64,000 nucleotides of DNA, taken from contig JBLNBO010000003.1 in NCBI GenBank assembly GCA_050260055.1, forward strand, positions 38,629-102,628, in the 5' to 3' direction. The notes below the pieces were generated by a model. That model was not told the origin of the DNA and did not search any database. It saw nothing but the letters and a program-made list of their open reading frames with translations. A program made the translations under genes and the position numbers. This stretch comes from Ignavibacteriales bacterium. Lineage in GTDB: Bacteria > Bacillota > Clostridia > Acetivibrionales > UBA4821. Below are positions 35,754 through 64,000 of the stretch, in pieces. Every line of letters starts with the position of its first letter. Within the stretch, counting starts at the first letter, position 1.

Positions 35754-35826
35754 GGTCCGTCTGTGGGTTCGAATCCCCCTAAACAAGAAAAGACACTTTC
35801 GTGTCTTTTCTTATGGCGGAGAGGGT
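35754..35826. repeat. 73-bp direct repeat copy 1 (T-arm-like fragment + terminator hairpin + last 15 nt of tRNA-Ser)
   Basis: 70/73 identical to 35933-36005 at an offset of 179 bp. Two of the three differences are a compensatory pair in the hairpin stem. Confidence 0.85.
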
Positions 35827-35932: not shown

Positions 35933-36005
35933 GGTCCATCTGTGGGTTCGAATCCCCCTAAACAAAAAAAGACACTTTCGTGTCTTTTTTTATGGCGGAG
36001 AGGGT
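35933..36005. repeat. 73-bp direct repeat copy 2, overlapping the 3' end of the intact tRNA-Ser
   Basis: See copy 1. It contains GGTCCATCTGTGGGTTCGAATCCCCC, the hairpin AAAAAGACACtttcGTGTCTTTTT and TGGCGGAGAGGGT. Confidence 0.85.
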
Positions 36006-36092: not shown

Positions 36093-36539
36093 TTACTTTT
36101 TACGCAGTTCTTTGAAAAACTTCTTTAGAACTCCCGCGCACTCTTCTTCCATTATCCCTGTATAAACTTCAACCTTATGATTAAAACCTTTTTCAAAAAC
36201 ATTGATTACCGAACCTGCCGCCCCTGCCTTTATATCATCCGCTCCATAATAAAGTCTTCTTATCCTTGATTGTATTATTGCCCCAGCACACATAGGACAT
36301 GGCTCAAGTGTAACATATAAATCACAGTCCAAAAGCCTCCATTCTCCAAGCTTCTTTGAAGCCTTCTGAATTGCAAGGATTTCAGCGTGAGCAGTAGTAT
36401 CTTTTCTTGTTTCCCTAAGATTATGCGCACGGGCAATTATTCTATCATTCTGTACAATCACAGCCCCTATCGGCGCCTCACCTTTTTTATATGCTTTCTC
36501 AGCTTCCTGCAAAGCTGCTTTCATATATTTATTATCCAT
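36093..36539 (-). CDS. tadA: tRNA-specific adenosine deaminase TadA
   Basis: The CDA zinc motifs HAE and PCPMCAGA, in a protein of 148 aa. Confidence 0.93.
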   Translation of the reverse strand: MDNKYMKAALQEAEKAYKKGEAPIGAVIVQNDRIIARAHNLRETRKDTTAHAEILAIQKASKKLGEWRLLDCDLYVTLEPCPMCAGAIIQSRIRRLYYGADDIKAGAAGSVINVFEKGFNHKVEVYTGIMEEECAGVLKKFFKELRKK

Positions 36540-36668: not shown

Positions 36669-37457
36669 CTATTGAATTGTATTTGCCATTTCTTCTACTT
36701 CGGTTGCTATGGTTTCATAGTCGCTAACCTTTATATCTTTACTTGATTCATAGCCATACTTTTCAGAAACATTCCTTATTATATCTGTATTGGCATTAGC
36801 AAGAGCATATAGCCGCTTTCTTTGCGGTTCAGTTATTGTTTTTTCTTCTTTCCCTTCCCCCGAAGAAGCATCTCCTTTTGGCTCGCCGTCTGCCTGCTGC
36901 ATTTCCTCATTTGTGTATATCCCGCTAAGATCATTTGGAAATGCCTTTCTTAGCGCTAATGCCTCTGCACATTTTCCAAGCATAAGATATGGCATCTTCT
37001 GCCACATAAATCCGTGGGTTTCCCCAGGGTAATATTCCTTCCATCTTGCAGTTGCCGTAAATGGGCATCTTTGATTGCTTATCATTTTATAAACTGTAAC
37101 TGTAGCTTTGTTTGGCGCAATAGCATCCTCCGTATCATAAACCGGGTCATCAATTCCGGCAAGCTGGCCTGTTCTTTCTGCTATTGCCCTATATCCATCA
37201 ATTCCGGTTTGGACAGTGATTGTGCTTTTAAAACTTCCGTCATTTTGCCTTGTCTTTCTTTTTACAAAATGAATTTGCTTGGTAAGCGGGTCTAATCCAG
37301 TTCTTTGGGCTATAAATAAAAACAGTTTAAGCTCATCATCTGTTGCATCTTTAGCCGAAGACGCCCTGATTAACTCAATCTGCTCCGGGTTGAACCCATA
37401 AGGAACTTCAATATTGCTTATGCTTATATTTTTATTATTCAAAACTTTCTCCTCCAA
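36669..37457 (-). CDS. recT: RecT-family single-strand annealing recombinase (phage-type), orphan
   Basis: GIDGYRAIAERTG, W(K)EY and MPYLMLGKCAEALALRKAFP are typical RecT blocks, followed by an acidic C-terminal tail. Confidence 0.85.
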   Translation of the reverse strand: MEEKVLNNKNISISNIEVPYGFNPEQIELIRASSAKDATDDELKLFLFIAQRTGLDPLTKQIHFVKRKTRQNDGSFKSTITVQTGIDGYRAIAERTGQLAGIDDPVYDTEDAIAPNKATVTVYKMISNQRCPFTATARWKEYYPGETHGFMWQKMPYLMLGKCAEALALRKAFPNDLSGIYTNEEMQQADGEPKGDASSGEGKEEKTITEPQRKRLYALANANTDIIRNVSEKYGYESSKDIKVSDYETIATEVEEMANTIQ

Positions 37458-42984: not shown

Positions 42985-43050
42985 TGCATTCTCGTTGATT
43001 GGGCTGCGGTGCAGTCCTTGTGAGAGTGCATTGTTATATGTAGTAGCGAC
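42985..43050. repeat. GC-rich intergenic element, short copy (E)
   Basis: It shares TTGATTGGGCTGCGG and GAGAGTGCATTGTTATATG..GCGAC with elements A and B. An internal inverted repeat TGCATTCTC / GAGAGTGCA is present. Confidence 0.7.
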
Positions 43051-43051
43051 A

Positions 43052-43780
43052 TTAAATATTCCTTGTAAATTTGCATGCTGGGTATCCAGAACAACCTAAG
43101 AACTTACCAAATTTACCTTTTTTCATTGATAAGGCACGGCCACATTTTGGGCAAACTTCGTCATTCTGAACTTCTTCCCCCTTACTTCGTTTTTCTTTTA
43201 CTACGTTTTCAACAATTTCCTTACCCTTTGATTTGCTCATAATTTCTATAAGTTTTTTTCTATCCCAGAGCTCAATTCCGTTTGAATTTGCTAAATCATA
43301 TGCGTTTTCTGTAAATGAACTATTGGTAACTACCATTCCTTTATTAGCATCATAGTACTTAATAGCTCCTATTACTTGTTGAATAGCATCAACACCAACA
43401 TTCATCTTCCATCTTTTTGCCTGAACAACAACTTTTCTGCCGGCCTTCTTCAAAACTAAATCTGCTCCATAATCATCAGTTTTTGGAGTTAAATGTCCAC
43501 TATAACCTAAATTCTTAAAATGTTCTAATAAGTAGTCTTCAAATACCTCTCCCCGCATATTATCAATTTCATCAATCCCACTTTCAAAAAGCTTCTTCCT
43601 TTTATTCTTTTTATATTTACTAATTGCTAGGTATAATAGTCCTAAACTTCCGAGAAAGGTTAACGCTCCTAACCAAATATTAGCTGTCTTCCCCCAAACA
43701 AATATGGATAAAATTATTGAGGCACTATAAAAAGTGTCAACAATATCCTCAAATACTGTGGTTTTTTTCCCTCTGCTCAC
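43052..43780 (-). CDS. membrane-anchored Mrr-type restriction endonuclease-fold protein with a C-terminal topoisomerase-type zinc ribbon
   Basis: Two N-terminal TM segments, the Mrr_cat blocks FE.....F...GY........DYGADL and VVVQAKRW...VG, and a C-terminal CPKCG....GCSGYPACKF. GTG start after GGGAGG. Confidence 0.8.
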   Translation of the reverse strand: MSRGKKTTVFEDIVDTFYSASIILSIFVWGKTANIWLGALTFLGSLGLLYLAISKYKKNKRKKLFESGIDEIDNMRGEVFEDYLLEHFKNLGYSGHLTPKTDDYGADLVLKKAGRKVVVQAKRWKMNVGVDAIQQVIGAIKYYDANKGMVVTNSSFTENAYDLANSNGIELWDRKKLIEIMSKSKGKEIVENVVKEKRSKGEEVQNDEVCPKCGRALSMKKGKFGKFLGCSGYPACKFTRNI

Positions 43781-43820
43781 AAAGATTCCTCCCTAAAAAA
43801 TATGTCGCTATTGCATATAG

Positions 43821-44040
43821 CATCCCACACTCTCGGCGTCACAGAGTTGGACTTGCAAAGCCCTTCTTCCTCGGTGGCGGCTTGTCCGCCCAGCGATTGG
43901 GATGCGGCACAAGCTTCCCGTTGTTGATCGCTCGGTATTGGGGCTGCTCCTCAAATAATGCCAGCAAACCTATACGAGAGTGAATTGTTAAGTGATGTCG
44001 GACGTCTAATAATTCAGAAGCAACCATGGATGGGTGCTCC
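43821..44040. repeat. GC-rich intergenic element, long copy (A)
   Basis: About 55-60% GC against an AT-rich background. It aligns by eye with 44806-44998 (block CACTCTC.GC.TCACAGAG.TGGAC..GCAA.GCC.TTCT.C.T.GG.GGCGGCTTGTCC.CCCAGCGATTGGG) and contains several short hairpins. Confidence 0.75.
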
Positions 44041-57387: not shown

Positions 57388-60300
57388 TTAATAAGTCACT
57401 TTCAACATTGGAATATCCGGTCCTTCCTTACTGCTAAACATAACAATCTTGTTTGATGTCCTGGAATAAATATTTAGACTGAGAGTTTTATCAGAATACT
57501 CCTGCTGAGCATATGATGTCACATCTGCAGTACATTGAGCATATGTCGAGGTAACCGAAAATGTGTTTTGAACCCACCAATCGCTAGACGGAGAGTTGCT
57601 TTGGGTTATTGTATATTCGCTCCATGAATCATCAGTTACTTTATAAACATACATGGTTATGTTATTGCCGCCAGCGGTATTTTTTCCTTTTAATATCAGC
57701 TGAGCGCTCACCGGAGAAGAAGGCAGCCCTGTCATGTCAAACTTTATATATGTTTCTCTAAGTTTGTCTGAAGTTGTTGAAAAAGAGTAACAATCATAAA
57801 GGTTCGGGTCTGTTCCATAATTTATGTCCACATACGCGCCGCCTCTAAAGTATGCATCATCAGTAGGGTAAAATATCCTGGTTGTACGAGAAGCAGCCGG
57901 GATTACACAGACTTCATTTGAATTAGTACTCTCTCCTTTTGCATTTACTGCACTAACTACATAGTAATACTTTGTATCATTTATAAGATTAATATCCTGA
58001 TAGGATGTTGATGTTATCCCCGAAACCCTTGTAGTATAAGGCCCTTTAGGATAACTGCTTACTTTGAGCTTGTAGCTTACCGCCCCATCTGAAGCAGTCC
58101 AGGTCAGATTTGCCTTTGTATTAATACCTGTACCGACAAGATTCTGCGGCACCTTAGGCACTCCTTCAACCATCTTGACTATTAACTCCGGCTTGTTTGA
58201 TGCGGCTTCTTTACTGTTGATTGAAACTGTATTCGAAGAGACATTAAGCCCAATACTTATCAGGCCTCCTGCTGTATCTATCTGCTCGGCAATATAATTT
58301 GAAACATCAATCTCGTAATACTGCTGGGTAGTATTCATATTGACGGTACCAACTTCACTTTCAAGGATAGGCGCATTGTTCCATGTAATTGACCCCATGC
58401 CGCTTTCAATCCAAGTTGTATTTGAAACCTTATATGCCTTTAAATCTATGGAACTTGCAGAGGTCTTTCCATATACTCTTAATTTCGCAGAAACCGGAGT
58501 ATTATTTGTATAGCCTGCTAGGCTGAACCTTAGATATGTCTTTTTATTATTCACTCCGTCATTAACAACCCCAAGAACTGTATTGGTTCCATAGTTGGTA
58601 CTTGGATAATAACTTTCAACTCTGGCATCTGCCGCAGGATTTTTGGTTACGGTTATAGCTGTGTTAGGTGTCGCAGATGCCTGATTGGAATCGGCACTTT
58701 CTCCGGCAGCATTTATAGCAGAAACAACATAATAATATTCAGTTCCATTTGTCACACTGTTATCAACATAAGCTGCTGACGTTAGTCCTGAAGCCAGAAC
58801 AGCATATGGCCCTCCATCAGTTGTGCTTCTCTTGATTGTATAACTATCCACCTGCGAAGATGCACTCCATGATAATGTTACTTGTGCATTATCAGGAACA
58901 GCTTTTAGGTCCAGCGGAGCATCTGGCTTTTGCAGAGTCTTTAAAATAATAAGCTCCGGCTTATTTGATATACTCTCTTTACTGTTAAAAGAGAGCAGCT
59001 TGGCTGAATCTTTGCCTGCATATGCAACGCTCGCAATTTTAGTTCCAGCCATTATAGTTTTAATATAATCAGTTACATTTATCTCTTTATACGATTGAGT
59101 ATTATCAACTTGTACAGAACCAATTTCTTCTCCTAATGCAGGCGCATTGCTGTAAGTCATTGTGTTTTCTTCCCAATCTGAATCATCAACTTGATATAAA
59201 CCCATATTAACTGTAGTTGAATCGTCCAGATTGCTTCCATAAACTCTTAAGCGTGCACTTATAATTTCTCCATTCAGATTTGAAAGGTTATATCTTAAAT
59301 AGGCGATTCTTCTTTCGTTCGAGCCTTCAATATCATTTTTAATTTCCAACTTTGCATTACTGCCATAATTATTTGCCGAATATGTTCCTCCGCGGATATA
59401 AGTATCTGCATTCGAGTTTAACGTAACTGTCACACGTTTGTCCGGCGTTGTACTTGCTTCGTTTGAATCGAGGCCTTCTCCTGTAGAGCTTAAAGCAGAA
59501 ACCACATAATAATAGGTTGTCCCATTAGTCACTGTAGAATCTGTATAGCTTACACTTGTAACATTTGCTATTGTTGTATACGGCCCGCCTGATGTTAGGC
59601 TTCTTTTTACATTATAAGTCTCAGCACCTATAACCGTATCCCAGCTAAGTATTGCTTTGCAGTCATCAGGCTCAGCTATAAGATTTTGCGGCGCTGGCGG
59701 AGCAGCAGCCGGTGTCCAGACGACTTCGAGCAGAGGCCTGTTGCTTGAAGGATGACGGCTAACTGCTGTAACTGTTGTGCTGTTTGGAGAAGTAAATAAA
59801 AATCCGGCAGTCTGATCCCCTGCAAGCTCTGTTTTACAGTAGTTTGTTACATTCAGCTCTACATATCTATTAGTTGAATTGAAAGACAATGTTCCAAGAC
59901 TGCTTCCTGCTGCTGGAGCATCTGACCATGTAATCCCGGTTTCGGTCCAACCATCATCGGGAACCGTAGATACTTCAGAACTCAGCGTTCCATTAGCAGA
60001 ACCATATATCCTGAGTTTTGCAGAAATAAGCGTTCCTTGAATTGATGAAAGATCAAACTTTAGGTAAGAGTTATATTTTTGACTGCTGTTATTTCCATTT
60101 CTAGCAATAAGTTCATTTGCTGTTCCATAATTGGAAAAAGAATAAAACAGTCCTCCTCTGACATAAGCATCTGCAGTAGGCTCCAGTCCTGTTGTGTTTA
60201 TTATTATAATTGCATTTGCCTCATTGGATTCAGGCCCGCTGCCATTATCGTTTACTGCCCAGACAATATAGTAATAGCGGATTCCGGCCTCAACATCTGT

Positions 60301-60849
60301 ATCTGTATACATATCAGAGGTGATTCCGCTTGCTATCGCGGTAAAATTGGTTTCGCTTTCTGCTCTTCTTTTTACGCTGTATGAACTTGCATTAATTGCC
60401 CTTGACCAATTAAGGGTGATATTCTGAGCCGAAGGTACAGCAGTTAAATTCGTAGTCTCACTTGGAACATCATTTGATAATAAAAGAATATATGTAACAA
60501 AAACAAGGTCCTGCATCCCAAGCCGGGTATTTTTGGGATGAACCGTTACTGTTACCTTTTTTAGATTGGTTGTAAGGTAAGGGTCTTCTCCCGAATCATC
60601 AACCTCAACAGAATAGCCATTTATGCTGCTGCTTATAAGGCCTGTTTTGTATCTTTCAATGGCTTCCTGCGCAGCATAAAGCATCTTGTCTTTTTCATTC
60701 ATTTCATTTATGGTTTTTGTAGTAAGGCTTGAATCATAGGCAATATATGCCATACAAATACCAAGGATGGAGATTGAAATCATTATCTCCACCAATGAAA
60801 TACCGTTATTCTTTTTAAAAAACTTTCTAATACGTGCAGCTAATTCCAA
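57388..60849 (-). CDS. giant pseudopilin: prepilin-like N-terminus + 4 x (FN3 + DNRLRE-type beta-sandwich) modules
   Basis: The N-terminus NNGISLVEIMISISILGI is a class III signal-like helix. It is followed by four alternating FN3 domains (L.W....A.SY.(V/I)KR......Y..(I/L)......Y.D..V.NGT.YYYVVSA(V/I)N..GES..SN) and domains of about 170 aa (AD(A/T)Y(V/I)RGG....NYG....L........(R/K).(S/A/T)YL(K/R)F.L........A.LR(I/V)YG ... W.E..(I/M)T(W/Y)(S/N)NAP ... NKPELI). Confidence 0.8.
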   Translation of the reverse strand: MELAARIRKFFKKNNGISLVEIMISISILGICMAYIAYDSSLTTKTINEMNEKDKMLYAAQEAIERYKTGLISSSINGYSVEVDDSGEDPYLTTNLKKVTVTVHPKNTRLGMQDLVFVTYILLLSNDVPSETTNLTAVPSAQNITLNWSRAINASSYSVKRRAESETNFTAIASGITSDMYTDTDVEAGIRYYYIVWAVNDNGSGPESNEANAIIIINTTGLEPTADAYVRGGLFYSFSNYGTANELIARNGNNSSQKYNSYLKFDLSSIQGTLISAKLRIYGSANGTLSSEVSTVPDDGWTETGITWSDAPAAGSSLGTLSFNSTNRYVELNVTNYCKTELAGDQTAGFLFTSPNSTTVTAVSRHPSSNRPLLEVVWTPAAAPPAPQNLIAEPDDCKAILSWDTVIGAETYNVKRSLTSGGPYTTIANVTSVSYTDSTVTNGTTYYYVVSALSSTGEGLDSNEASTTPDKRVTVTLNSNADTYIRGGTYSANNYGSNAKLEIKNDIEGSNERRIAYLRYNLSNLNGEIISARLRVYGSNLDDSTTVNMGLYQVDDSDWEENTMTYSNAPALGEEIGSVQVDNTQSYKEINVTDYIKTIMAGTKIASVAYAGKDSAKLLSFNSKESISNKPELIILKTLQKPDAPLDLKAVPDNAQVTLSWSASSQVDSYTIKRSTTDGGPYAVLASGLTSAAYVDNSVTNGTEYYYVVSAINAAGESADSNQASATPNTAITVTKNPAADARVESYYPSTNYGTNTVLGVVNDGVNNKKTYLRFSLAGYTNNTPVSAKLRVYGKTSASSIDLKAYKVSNTTWIESGMGSITWNNAPILESEVGTVNMNTTQQYYEIDVSNYIAEQIDTAGGLISIGLNVSSNTVSINSKEAASNKPELIVKMVEGVPKVPQNLVGTGINTKANLTWTASDGAVSYKLKVSSYPKGPYTTRVSGITSTSYQDINLINDTKYYYVVSAVNAKGESTNSNEVCVIPAASRTTRIFYPTDDAYFRGGAYVDINYGTDPNLYDCYSFSTTSDKLRETYIKFDMTGLPSSPVSAQLILKGKNTAGGNNITMYVYKVTDDSWSEYTITQSNSPSSDWWVQNTFSVTSTYAQCTADVTSYAQQEYSDKTLSLNIYSRTSNKIVMFSSKEGPDIPMLKVTY

Positions 60850-61349
60850 CCAAATGACACCTCTCCCGTTTGAGGAGTAATCTTTATATAAATATATACG
60901 TTTGATGCCTTAAGATAAATTGTTGTCAAATCAGTAAAAGCAGTTGTCTCATCTGGCTCAAACGGCTTACCTGTACTGTCAAAAACAAATCCTTCTCCTA
61001 CAGAATTTCCTGATGCATCAACTATTTTTTCACAGGTAATTCCTCCGCTGAAATCAACTCTTTTTATCGTTTTTAAGGTTCTTCCCGTTTCTGAAACTAT
61101 TATTTGTCTGATTTCATACCAGTTTTCATCAAAATTAAAAAATACTATGTGGTTATCTTTTGTGCTTATGCTAAGCTCCTGGGCATAACGGATATCAGAA
61201 ACAAGGTTTCTTGCTGATGTGTATAATTTAAAGTCGTTTTTTGAGCCTCCCATCCTTGGTGCGGCAACAACAATAACAATTCCCAAGATGGCTATAACTA
61301 TCATTATTTCCAGAAGCGTAAAACCTTTATTTTTCATATTGCCCCTCAC
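60840..61349 (-). CDS. GspH/FimT-like minor pilin
   Basis: KGFTLLEIMIVIAILGI prepilin motif, then the ...L..D(I)R.A(Q)..(S)I pattern of GspH/FimT. Confidence 0.75.
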   Translation of the reverse strand: MRGNMKNKGFTLLEIMIVIAILGIVIVVAAPRMGGSKNDFKLYTSARNLVSDIRYAQELSISTKDNHIVFFNFDENWYEIRQIIVSETGRTLKTIKRVDFSGGITCEKIVDASGNSVGEGFVFDSTGKPFEPDETTAFTDLTTIYLKASNVYIYIKITPQTGEVSFGWN

Positions 61350-61351
61350 AT

Positions 61352-62569
61352 TTACTTACCTCCCGATAAAGACCCAATCATATTAAACATTGGAAGCATT
61401 ACCGAAAGAAGGATTGCCGCAATAACTCCACCCATTATAAGAGTAAACATCGGTTCAAGCAAAGAAATTGCTTTTGCTATTCCCGAATCAAATTTTTCAT
61501 CATAATAATCCGCTAAATCATTCATAGAATCTGCCAGAGTTCCTGTTTCTTCGCTGATTGAAATAATATTTGTTACCATATTGTCAAAAAACCCGATTTG
61601 CTCAAAGCTTGCCGAAAGGGACTCACCCTTATTTATTCTGTCTTTTGCTTCAGAAATTCCTTTGCTGAGCTTCTCATTCCCTACTACCTTTTCAAGCGTA
61701 TCCATAATTATAAGCATAGGCAAACCCGTGTTTATGAGCATGCCCATTGTTCTTGCCACCCTTGCAGTTAAAAAGTCGACTGCAACCCTTGAAATCATAG
61801 GGGTTTTAAACATAAGGTATGTTTTACATCGCACCTTGAATTGATAAGGAACAGCTTTAATGTATAAAACAACTAAAGCCGCAATAGAAAGTAATACTGC
61901 AGCCAGATTGTTTGCCACAAAATGCGCGGTTCCCATAAGAATTTTTGTAAGAAGCGGGAGTTCTACCCCATTCTCAGAAATTATTCCAACAAGCTCCGGA
62001 AGAACGAAAAAAGTGAAGATGATAATTACAGCAGTAGCGATACATACAAGGATGCATGGATAAATAAGTGCCGAAGAAATCTTCTTTTTGGTTCTGGTTT
62101 CTTTCTCATAATACTCAGCCATTTTCTTAAAAATAGAATCAAGATTTCCGCTGACTTCTCCAACCTGAACCATGTTGACAAGAAGCATCGGAAGCCTAAA
62201 CCCGCAGTTTTTGAATGCATCCGTAAGGGAGCTTCCTTTCTGGATGCTTATATTTAGGCTGTCGGCAAGCTCTTTTACCTTCTTACTGTCTGTCTGGTCT
62301 CTAACCATTTGGAGCCCTTTTAATATGCTGATTCCAGACTTTGTTATTATGCTGAGCTGATTGCAAAATGCCGCTATCTCAGATGATGAAATATTCCTGA
62401 TTTCCTGTTTGCTTGATCTGCTTTTTGCAAATAGGTCTGCCTTTATTTTTATCAGCTTTTGTCCTTCTGCTGCAATCAATTGTCTTACCTCTTCAGGACT
62501 TTCTGCATCAATACTGTCGTTTATTATCTCATTATGCTCGTTCAATGCCGAATACTTGTATACTGGCAT
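61352..62569 (-). CDS. pilC: type IV pilus platform protein PilC (GspF family)
   Basis: 405 aa with two GspF repeats and three TM segments. Confidence 0.93.
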   Translation of the reverse strand: MPVYKYSALNEHNEIINDSIDAESPEEVRQLIAAEGQKLIKIKADLFAKSRSSKQEIRNISSSEIAAFCNQLSIITKSGISILKGLQMVRDQTDSKKVKELADSLNISIQKGSSLTDAFKNCGFRLPMLLVNMVQVGEVSGNLDSIFKKMAEYYEKETRTKKKISSALIYPCILVCIATAVIIIFTFFVLPELVGIISENGVELPLLTKILMGTAHFVANNLAAVLLSIAALVVLYIKAVPYQFKVRCKTYLMFKTPMISRVAVDFLTARVARTMGMLINTGLPMLIIMDTLEKVVGNEKLSKGISEAKDRINKGESLSASFEQIGFFDNMVTNIISISEETGTLADSMNDLADYYDEKFDSGIAKAISLLEPMFTLIMGGVIAAILLSVMLPMFNMIGSLSGGK

Positions 62570-62603
62570 AGCTTTATCCTTTCTTTTGTATAAACTTCAA
62601 TCG

Positions 62604-62640
62604 GTAAAATGCACGGGTAAATGTAAAGGAGTACGGGTAA
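62604..62640. repeat. left arm of the 37-bp inverted repeat bracketing pilA
   Basis: The reverse complement TTACCCGTACTCCTTTACATTTACCCGTGCATTTTAC matches 63236-63271 at 34 of 37 positions, with one indel. Confidence 0.8.
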
Positions 62641-62660
62641 GGAAATTTTCTCTTTAGGTA

Positions 62661-63206
62661 TTAGTTTGTTGTTACTGCTTTATTTGCAAGTACAGTTCCA
62701 TTAACATCATGCGGAGTAAATGTGACTCTTAGCTTGCCACTAGCATCAACAAAAGCATCATACTCAACTACTCCTGAGAAATTAGGATCAGTTGTACCAG
62801 CCATTGTTATTAACTGTACTGCAGCAGTCATATCAGCTGTTGCGTCTGATTCATAAAGAAAAGCTCTGTTACCTGCTGTAAAAGCTGGAGTATCAGGGTC
62901 TGTAGCAGTATCAGCTGCAGCTGTTCCAACAAATGCCACCTTGGTTAATGGATTTTTCATTCCATTTGCACGTAATCTTGAAACAAGTGCGAGTTCAATA
63001 TCGTCACATCCTGCTTCAGTTCCCTCATATGATTCAATCAATGCTTCTGCTATAGAAGCTGCCATTCTAACGTTTGTATCAAGACCTGCTTCTCTTGCCT
63101 GGTTCTTTACTCCTGCAACTCTTGGTATAAGCACGAGTGCAAGAATCCCGATAATAGCTATAGCTATCATTAATTCAATAAGTGTAAAACCTTTATTATT
63201 CTTCAA
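62661..63206 (-). CDS. pilA: major type IV pilin PilA
   Basis: MKNNKGFTLIELMIAIAIIGILA prepilin signal with Gly-1/Phe+1/Glu+5. TTG start 8 nt after AAAGGAGG. Confidence 0.9.
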   Translation of the reverse strand: MKNNKGFTLIELMIAIAIIGILALVLIPRVAGVKNQAREAGLDTNVRMAASIAEALIESYEGTEAGCDDIELALVSRLRANGMKNPLTKVAFVGTAAADTATDPDTPAFTAGNRAFLYESDATADMTAAVQLITMAGTTDPNFSGVVEYDAFVDASGKLRVTFTPHDVNGTVLANKAVTTN

Positions 63207-63235
63207 CCTTACCCATCCTCCTTTGATTTTTTTAT

Positions 63236-63271
63236 TTACCGTACTCCTTTACAATTACCACTGCATTTTAC
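63236..63271. repeat. right arm of the inverted repeat bracketing pilA
   Basis: TTACCGTACTCCTTTACAATTACCACTGCATTTTAC, 30 nt upstream of the pilA start on the minus strand. Confidence 0.8.
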
Positions 63272-63452
63272 TTAACTTTCTGTTGTTCTGTTTCATCTCC
63301 TTTCCAAATCTTTTTACATAGGCGGATTTCCCCTATAACTCACCTCTATCCCCTCTCTTAAAATAGAGGGGTATTAGACCTTCTTCGAAGAATTTACCCT
63401 TTCTTCCCTCTATCTTGAGAGAGGGAAGGTAGATGGGTGAGTTGTCAACTAA

Positions 63453-64000
63453 TTAAGCATAAGTTATCCTTATCATTTCTTCAATCGTGGTTACTCCCTC
63501 GAGTATCATATGTTTACAGCTTTCTCTCAAGGTAACCATCCCCTCTGTTACCGCTTGGTCTCTGAGGTTCTCTGTAGGCGTCCTCTGGTCAATAAGAAGC
63601 CTCAAATCCTTGGTTATTTCCATAATTTCAAATATGGCCGTCCTGCCTTTATATCCGGAATGTCCGCATAATCTGCATCCTGCTCCTTTATAAATCTTTC
63701 TTTCATCATTCAATTCTATACCTAAAAGAGCTAAATCCCTGTCATCAGGAATGTGCTCTTTTTTACAGTGGGGGCAAATCTTTCTGACCAACCTTTGTGC
63801 AATTATTCCGATTAAGCTTGAAGATACCAAAAACGGCTCAATGCCCATATCTGTAAGCCTTGAGATTACACCTGGAGCATCGTTTGTGTGGAGGGTGCTC
63901 AAAACAAGGTGTCCTGTTAAAGCCGCACGTATTGAAATCTCGGCGGTTTCCGAGTCTCTTATTTCTCCCACCATTACTATATCAGGGTCTTGCCTTAGTA
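63453..64000 (-). CDS. pilB: type IV pilus assembly ATPase PilB (GspE family), C-terminal part; continues beyond the window
   Basis: The His box region [11 protein letters not shown], the tetracysteine motif CPHCK...[12 protein letters not shown], and a frame that stays open to base 64000. Confidence 0.9.

Follow-up and report, generated by a model that had tools for sequence, protein, structure and literature searches.

A predicted long-range RNA helix, conserved in ten lineages, joins the two untranslated regions of pilA inside a clostridial type IV pilus operon

What does a long inverted repeat do around a single pilin gene in the middle of an operon? The question is raised by a 64,000-nucleotide (nt) stretch of DNA, called the window here, from the assembly GCA_050260055.1 (contig JBLNBO010000003.1, positions 38,629 to 102,628 of the forward strand), which is deposited as Ignavibacteriales bacterium and placed by GTDB in the Clostridia (Acetivibrionales, UBA4821). 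Near one end of the window, the type IV prepilin gene pilA lies between pilB and pilC, with one arm of the repeat on each side of it. A first-pass annotation of this DNA had offered two readings of the arms: (a) an RNA duplex in a pilB-pilA-pilC transcript, at which a separate pilA mRNA would be excised, and (b) DNA sites for inversion or replacement of the pilin cassette. The comparison of ten lineages reported here indicates that the arms make up helix 1, a conserved long-range RNA helix of 33 base pairs (bp) between the 5′ untranslated region (UTR) and the 3′ UTR of pilA. All window genes of the pilus locus are on the minus strand, and the genes and arms in question, listed in the direction of transcription, are the following.

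63453..64000, minus strand: 3′ part of pilB (T2SSE/PilB ATPase), an open reading frame (ORF) truncated by the window end; Pfam T2SSE E = 3e-59
63453-63455, minus strand: pilB stop codon, from the ORF
63239..63271, minus strand: E1, the 5′ arm and 5′ strand of helix 1, from the repeat search, alignment, RNAalifold, and folds
62661..63206, minus strand: pilA, type IV prepilin of 181 amino acids (aa), from the ORF; Pfam N_methyl; leader MKNNKG/FTLIEL; TTG start
62604..62636, minus strand: E3, the 3′ arm and 3′ strand of helix 1, from the repeat search, alignment, and RNAalifold
61352..62569, minus strand: pilC, T2SSF platform protein; Pfam T2SSF E = 2e-60

The arms around pilA and their conservation

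The inverted-repeat search placed the arms at 62604-62645 and 63230-63271 (42 nt, 83% complementary, separated by 584 nt). In the register common with the relatives, 62604-62636 faces 63239-63271 in 33 pairs, 30 of which are Watson-Crick in the window. The top ungapped 42-nt inverted repeat between 62300 and 63600 matched at 35 of 42 positions, compared to a mean of 24.5 (standard deviation 0.9) and a maximum of 27 in 200 shuffles, and the pilA repeat came out on top when every inverted repeat in the entire 64 kb with arms of 26 nt or more, spaced by up to 3 kb, was ranked. The 37-bp inverted repeat described in the first-pass annotation is thus real, and its arms lie 20 nt past the pilA stop and 29 nt ahead of the pilA start, in agreement with the distances reported there. 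A third, partial copy is also present, with 62625-62642 being 89% complementary to 63207-63224 over 18 nt; it overlaps the pilA ribosome-binding site (RBS) as had been said, and its string occupies 63207-63226, one position away from where it had been put. The arm sequence is single-copy in the window, as is a hairpin in the pilB-pilA spacer (see below), and an identity of the arms as a dispersed repeat or a miniature inverted-repeat transposable element was discarded on these grounds.

Relatives were collected by protein similarity and not by the repeat, so the sample is unbiased towards arm retention. A PilC scan of one genome per species yielded one usable relative, a Clostridia metagenome-assembled genome (L002, PilC identity 60%); the matches L001 and L003 were unrelated pilC loci with no pilA upstream. 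A PilA search of a large protein collection returned 37 homologues, and twelve contig look-ups provided loci L004-L015 and L018-L022. Ten distinct pilB-pilA-pilC lineages were recognized: the window itself (WIN), L006, L013, L021, L002, L011, L012, L010, L015, and L018. Both arms were kept in all ten, in the identical place and register, over a divergence that extends down to 51-59% identity in PilC and covers 42-69% identity in PilA. The pilin gene diverges far faster than its flanks (e.g., PilC 89% versus PilA 63%, and PilC 86% versus PilA 66%).

Three pilA homologues located outside a pilB-pilC context (L019, L020, and L022) had no arms; the one in L022 possesses a promoter-like site (TTGACG-17-TATATT) and a terminator-like hairpin followed by a T run. 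When a 23-nt pattern of the 3′ arm was run against JGI metagenome contigs, only two matches were obtained, both directly after pilA; the pattern is strict and so understates the spread of the element.

Base pairing and operon context

The ten sequences aligned gap-free, and the 33-pair helix was scored on this alignment. Standard pairs filled 92.1% of the cells, and 8 pairs carried changes on both sides, for instance four outer-half positions where G-C is replaced by A-U. On four of five measures, at most 1 in 500 column shuffles (0-1) reached the observed value, and shifting the partner strand by 1-3 columns reduced the pairing to 36-51%. RNAalifold independently gave the same helix, with 30 pairs of which 7 were compensatory. 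The non-Watson-Crick cells, read on the mRNA strand, comprised 22 G·U or U·G and 2 A·C or C·A (10 versus 2 columns). Because strand-symmetric mutation of a DNA repeat would generate G·U and A·C equally, these counts are inconsistent with a repeat kept at the DNA level, and the imbalance suggests that selection acted on a structure of the sense-strand RNA and not on DNA recombination sites. The GGTAA(A)(T)G submotifs that had been singled out within the arms were rejected as functional units, since L011, L012, and L018 swap two of them for AATAA/UUAUU with the pairing kept.

Partition-function folds of the ~650-nt stretch gave a pairing probability of ~1.0 for the helix core in all ten lineages, and helix 1 was found in both the minimum free energy (MFE) and the centroid structure of the window transcript. 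Depending on the lineage, the duplex comprises 30-36 bp with 0-3 internal mismatches and a predicted free energy of −42 to −51 kcal/mol, and its length is that of an RNase III substrate (continuous double-stranded RNA of at least about two helical turns). An Rfam cmscan of 61000-64000, with E values up to 1 accepted, returned three chance-level hits only, all to eukaryotic families. A known RNA family was eliminated on this basis for the same interval, including the cyclic di-GMP riboswitch found upstream of clostridial pilA.

The position of the 5′ arm relative to pilB bears on how pilA is transcribed. The pilB stop codon TAA supplies the first bases of the 5′ arm in L002 and L011, and the arm begins 4 nt past the stop in L018. 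For these three loci, the promoter scan detected no sigma-70-like site upstream of the pilA start on the sense strand, and the terminator scan detected no terminator-like site between pilA and pilC. The terminator scan of window positions 62300-63700, which include the pilA-pilC gap, likewise gave 0 terminator-like sites, and in the window and the three loci neither type of scan yielded anything above shuffle expectation near the arms. The abutment of the arm on the pilB stop, together with these negative scans in L002, L011, and L018, suggests that the arm is transcribed with pilB, and we infer that pilA is read within a pilB-pilA-pilC transcript with both arms on one RNA; the designation of this pilin as the "major" pilin is inferred in the same way. 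A promoter within the 5′ arm itself, with TAAAAT as the −10 box, was excluded because those bases covary with the 3′ arm. The duplex part of reading (a) is sustained by these results in all ten operons; what it attached to the duplex, excision of a stable pilA message, is considered below as a prediction.

Functional readings of the helix

Interpretation of the helix depends on its relation to the start of pilA, for which four additional elements must be distinguished.

63217..63224, minus strand: Shine-Dalgarno (SD) sequence of pilA, AAAGGAGG, from the sequence and cofold models
63207-63224, minus strand: E2, composed of GGGUAAGG plus the SD, complementary to E3; the third copy of the first-pass annotation
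63207..63214, minus strand: 5′ strand of helix 2, GGGUAAGG, 8 nt directly 5′ of TTG, complementary to 62635-62642
62635..62642, minus strand: 3′ strand of helix 2, CCUUACCC, at the 5′ end of the 3′ element, sharing two C's with helix 1

Helix 1 consists of an outer 15 bp that are variable and covarying and an inner 15 bp that are nearly invariant. The division is visible in E1, whose distal half covaries and whose proximal half, UGUAAAGGAGUACGG, is nearly invariant and SD-like. Within inner helix 1, UGUAAAGGAGUACGG is paired with CCGUAYUCCUUUACA, such that an SD mimic faces a lookalike of the 16S ribosomal RNA (rRNA) 3′ end. E3, which carries the anti-SD-like CUCCUUU, lies between pilA and pilC and precedes the pilC start by 91 nt. 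Helix 2 is 8 bp long; eight of the ten lineages retain its motif pair GGGUAAGG/CCUUACCC, L015 has a shortened form, and L018 has lost it. The pair is invariant, so covariation speaks neither for nor against it. Bimolecular folds stacked helix 2 on helix 1 in 5 of 10 lineages (WIN, L013, L002, L011, and L012), and models with both helices left the SD (63217-63224) in the loop between them. The pilA start codon (63204-63206) is TTG in nine lineages, and the only lineage with ATG, L018, is also the one without the CCUUACCC/GGGUAAGG helix. The pilA stop is separated from CCUUACCC by 3-10 nt in 6 of 10 lineages and by 17-18 nt in the window's closest group; opening of helix 2 by terminating ribosomes was dropped as a universal feature because of the latter gap.

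E3 is also complementary to the RBS of pilA. The predicted E2:E3 duplex has a free energy of −26.5 kcal/mol in the window, compared to a mean of −7.8 (standard deviation 4.0) and a best value of −16.6 for E3 with 55 other RBS regions, and in seven of the ten lineages it lies between −23 and −27 kcal/mol. E1:E3 is stronger than E2:E3 by about 20 kcal/mol, so E1 should win E3 while it is present. When E1 was removed in silico, the probability that the SD is unpaired fell from 0.41-0.82 to 0.18-0.24 in the four lineages that form the window's group.

The window also has a 13-codon upstream ORF (uORF) at 63255-63296 on the minus strand (MKQNNRKLSKMQW, then a stop), right after AAAGGAG and ending within the 5′ arm. 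Its counterpart has 5 codons in L006 and is absent in L013; in L002, a uORF of 10 codons overlaps the start. A conserved uORF following the SD mimic was ruled out, since neither the 13-codon uORF of the window nor the 10-codon uORF of L002 is conserved, and the window uORF is probably not functional.

The reading that we prefer, with confidence that is evenly balanced, is that the arms form a 5′UTR-3′UTR clamp that delimits a separate pilA mRNA within the operon transcript and shields it from decay. Helix 1 and helix 2 would close the entire pilA cistron into a loop within the pilB-pilA-pilC message. RNase III could make a double-strand cut in the variable outer half; the 5′ and 3′ ends of pilA created by the cut would still be paired with each other, and the pilB and pilC fragments would be left exposed. 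As an alternative to cutting, the duplex could block the 5′-to-3′ and 3′-to-5′ exonucleases that degrade the pilB and pilC parts. The pilin message would then accumulate far above the pilB and pilC message from a single promoter, with the clamp replacing the usual dedicated promoter and terminator. In addition, the SD-mimic 5′ arm would act as a decoy that holds the anti-SD-like 3′ element off the true RBS; upon loss of the 5′ arm, the 3′ element would fold onto the RBS and translation would be turned off, so that clamp integrity and translation would be coupled.

Several considerations lead to this protective clamp. The element was found exclusively at loci where pilA sits between pilB and pilC and has no terminator to itself, whereas homologues elsewhere have no arms and one of them has a promoter and terminator instead. 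A duplex of 30-36 bp is the type of substrate that RNase III cleaves, and if left uncut it would also block exonucleases. Protection is favoured over repression because a structural pilin needs high output. Cleavage by RNase III and a stabilising, rather than destabilising, outcome are both predicted from the sequence.

Other points weigh against the protective clamp. The ten sequences derive from related lineages, which limits their statistical independence. The spacer ahead of the 5′ arm is 246 nt long in the window and could contain a promoter missed by a simple scan, making the operon-internal argument weaker there; any promoter in this spacer would still put the 5′ arm in the pilA leader. 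No Ribonuclease_3 domain was detected in the window, among its 57 ORFs of at least 120 aa. Decay, as in icaR, is an equally plausible fate of a long duplex that is perfect or nearly so. Helix 2 ties up the spacer adjoining the start codon and should hamper initiation rather than promote it. Finally, the decoy effect on SD accessibility is clear in only 4 of 10 lineages and is small or absent in the others.

A possibility that we hold only tentatively is that the clamp is mainly a translational switch or repressor of the icaR type, in which the anti-SD-like 3′ element and helix 2 hold the pilA start closed. The SD-mimic 5′ arm would then be an anti-anti-SD whose availability sets pilin output, and RNase III would destroy the closed form. 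Availability of the 5′ arm could be set by ribosomes terminating on pilB, by a protein such as CsrA that binds GGA motifs, of which two are present, or by 5′ processing; no conserved trigger was identified, and the uORFs near the arm are not conserved. Such a switch fits the SD/anti-SD-like nature of the invariant core and the specific complementarity of E3 to pilA's own RBS, but the ~20 kcal/mol greater stability of E1:E3 over E2:E3 means that the SD itself would not be sequestered at equilibrium, and the SD-accessibility predictions are noisy. Control of initiation would also suit a helix 2 that abuts the start codon in 8 of 10 lineages, a stop codon within 3-10 nt of CCUUACCC in six of them, and the weak TTG start kept in nine, with the sole ATG lineage being without helix 2. 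Both icaR (PMC3868564) and long-range anti-SD repression (PMC12697547) are precedents, yet a pure repressor would not account for the compensatory upkeep of the distal 15 bp, which are far from any SD.

Somewhat more doubtful is a version of the protective clamp in which pilA is cut from the operon transcript in the manner of rRNA. RNase III would cut the outer half, and the inner half plus helix 2 would stay as an end-joining clamp that shields the ends, frees the RBS, and brings the stop beside the start. Ribosomes terminating at the stop codon would reopen the adjacent start site, creating a bacterial "closed-loop" mRNA for the mass production of one structural protein. In rRNA operons, inverted repeats located hundreds of nt apart pair into RNase III processing stalks. 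The pilA arms are like these stalks in that they enclose a functional RNA in a longer precursor and form a duplex of more than 20 bp that is fit for a double-strand cut; they are unlike them in that the enclosed RNA is a protein-coding cistron, and cleavage here is a prediction.

It is very improbable that the 3′ arm functions as a long-range partial terminator or attenuator, with the helix and the subsequent AUUUUA halting some polymerases before pilC. The 3′ arm does end in (C/U)AUUUUA in most lineages (UAUUUUAUUUUU in L018), but this U run belongs to the helix, where GUAAAAUG is its partner, and it is changed to CACUUAC in L010 and CACUUGC in L015 with compensating changes in the 5′ arm; thus, what is conserved is the pairing and not a U tract. 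Some reduction of pilC relative to pilA is needed, as such an attenuator would provide; nevertheless, the terminator scans of the window, L002, L011, and L018 found none, and a helix around a 600-nt loop is unlikely to form quickly enough to dislodge polymerase.

Reading (b), in which the arms are DNA recombination sites for inversion of pilA (phase variation) or breakpoints for cassette swaps (antigenic variation), is hardly credible: the inverted repeats do bracket pilA exactly, but in every one of the 17 contigs or loci inspected, which come from many samples, pilA is co-oriented with pilB and pilC (assemblies would not reveal inversion in a small minority of cells), no tyrosine or serine recombinase occurs among the 57 window ORFs, in line with the earlier statement that none is encoded there, the excess of G·U over A·C is not that of DNA repeats, which should be strand-unbiased, and the arms differ from one another and still pair, which is unexpected for recombinase core sites. 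Cassette exchange with the arms as breakpoints is unlikely. The faster divergence of pilA relative to its flanks does speak for it. L011 and L012 are closer in PilA (69% identical) and in their nearly identical arms than in PilC (61%), in contrast to all other pairs, for which PilA is the more diverged. The shared segment (L011 2430-3100 and L012 940-1600, from protein and arm identity) includes the arms along with pilA, which would place the breakpoints outside the arms, and horizontal transfer of pilA along with its arms is a possible explanation.

Invertible DNA switches, such as Escherichia coli fimS and the Moraxella Piv pilin inversion, have a nearby invertase, both orientations, and short identical repeats. 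The pilA locus resembles them in having inverted repeats that flank a pilus-related segment, and it differs in having no nearby invertase, a single orientation, and a mismatch pattern that points to RNA. The window does encode a RecT-family single-strand annealing protein (36669-37457, minus strand), beside a deaminase gene (36093-36539). No other recombination-related gene turned up in the window, and this one is not an invertase.

Neighbouring features and known systems

The pilB-pilA spacer of the window contains one additional structure.

63338..63441, minus strand: extended hairpin of ~105 nt in the pilB-pilA spacer; MFE −57.5 kcal/mol, z = −4.3; single-copy in the window

Two CCCTCT/AGAGGG hairpins had been reported in this spacer; both are present, nested in this one structure rather than standing as separate units. 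The hairpin is lineage-specific, as the spacer of L016 has z = −0.5 and there is no room for it where the arm abuts pilB. The independent Logan contigs L004 and L005 begin 9 nt apart, at or just inside the 5′ edge of the hairpin, which suggests either a palindrome-induced assembly break or an insertion present in only some strains. Strong hairpins of the form UCUCCC...GGGAGA are found between the 3′ arm and pilC in L006 (750-800) and, at ~60-90 nt past the pilA stop, in L010 and L015. In the window, hairpins of this type lie upstream of the 5′ arm instead, as if a variable hairpin module were gained and lost around the clamp. Tandem GAGAATT(G) repeats are located directly upstream of the 5′ arm in the related lineages L010 (about 2380-2425) and L015 (about 2375-2415).

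Past pilC, according to ORFs and Pfam, the locus continues with genes for a minor pilin, a 1153-aa pilin-like protein, and a further pilin, followed by pilM, pilN, and two pilO genes. The 1153-aa protein (57388-60849, minus strand) has a prepilin N-terminal methylation motif, four CBM96 modules, and fn3 domains, and giant genes resembling it are located after pilC in L006, L013, L018, and L021. It may be a carbohydrate-binding adhesin at the pilus tip or displayed on the pilus.

Elsewhere in the window, a second gene-bracketing inverted repeat (43022-43052 and 43802-43832; 31 nt, 77% complementary, 749 nt apart) encloses an ORF (43052-43780) with an Mrr_cat restriction-endonuclease domain and a topoisomerase-type zinc ribbon. 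A 28-nt palindrome occurs in two copies 179 nt apart (35785-35812 and 35964-35991; AAGAAAAGACACTTTCGTGTCTTTTCTT and a close variant). Each copy could form a hairpin between A and T runs, like a bidirectional terminator.

For icaR of Staphylococcus aureus, pairing of the 5′ and 3′ UTRs controls the mRNA through RNase III and RBS masking (PMC3868564). As in icaR (PMC3868564), an anti-SD-like element of the pilA 3′ UTR is predicted to pair with the 5′ UTR or RBS region of its own mRNA, and the duplex is a plausible RNase III substrate; the pilA element is also specifically complementary to its own RBS. Unlike icaR, the main partner of the pilA element is an upstream SD mimic and not the real SD, the duplex has 33 bp that covary across deep lineages (known here from sequence), and the element resides within a polycistronic operon where the "3′ UTR" is an intercistronic spacer. 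A further difference is the very high expression needed for pilA, which makes net repression unlikely.

The mRNA of hbs in Bacillus subtilis is protected from RNase Y by 5′/3′-UTR pairing; access of RNase Y, RNase J1, and PNPase is modulated, and how stable the mRNA is depends on initiation of translation at a strong SD (PMC5737220). The pilA element shares with it a long-range UTR pairing on a highly expressed Firmicute gene that modulates, or in the case of pilA would modulate, the access of ribonucleases (PMC5737220). The hbs pairing involves 14 bp in a monocistronic mRNA, whereas that of pilA involves 33 + 8 bp around a mid-operon cistron and has an SD/anti-SD core.

The papBA operon of E. 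coli exhibits differential stability of the pilin mRNA. In the pilD-pilB2-pilC2-pilA2 operon of Clostridium perfringens, RNase Y processing of pilA2 has been proposed and is disputed (PMC6958937). Both systems resemble the present locus in that pilin is in excess over co-operonic assembly proteins and processing to a stable pilin message was proposed. They rely on single-strand endonuclease sites, local hairpins, or an internal promoter plus terminators, and neither is known to have a 5′-3′ clamp around the cistron.

A 2021 review listed three bacterial mRNAs with known 5′-3′ UTR pairing, hld/RNAIII, icaR, and hbs, and asked whether such pairing applies to further genes (PMC7821165). Our full-text literature searches, with incomplete coverage, retrieved no pilin 5′/3′ clamp and no RNase III stalk around a pilin gene. 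The principle of the pilA element, as deduced here, is that of icaR and hbs; the element differs in its length, its SD-decoy design, its position in an operon, and its covarying conservation. The duplex (33 + 8 bp) is much longer than the known cases and covaries across deeply diverged Clostridia.

In B. subtilis, according to a 2025 preprint, distant anti-SD-like sequences repress by long-range pairing with the RBS, and they are depleted from genes (PMC12697547). If the clamp is real, pilA would represent a natural, conserved use of a distal anti-SD-like sequence of the kind otherwise depleted from genes (PMC12697547), and the element would be a compact, portable part with which one cistron of a synthetic operon could be protected or tuned in Gram-positive hosts. 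The proposed clamp is located precisely where a stoichiometry problem arises, since far more pilin is required than ATPase or platform protein. It would let these Clostridia express the genes of one operon in different ratios with neither a promoter nor a terminator inside it.

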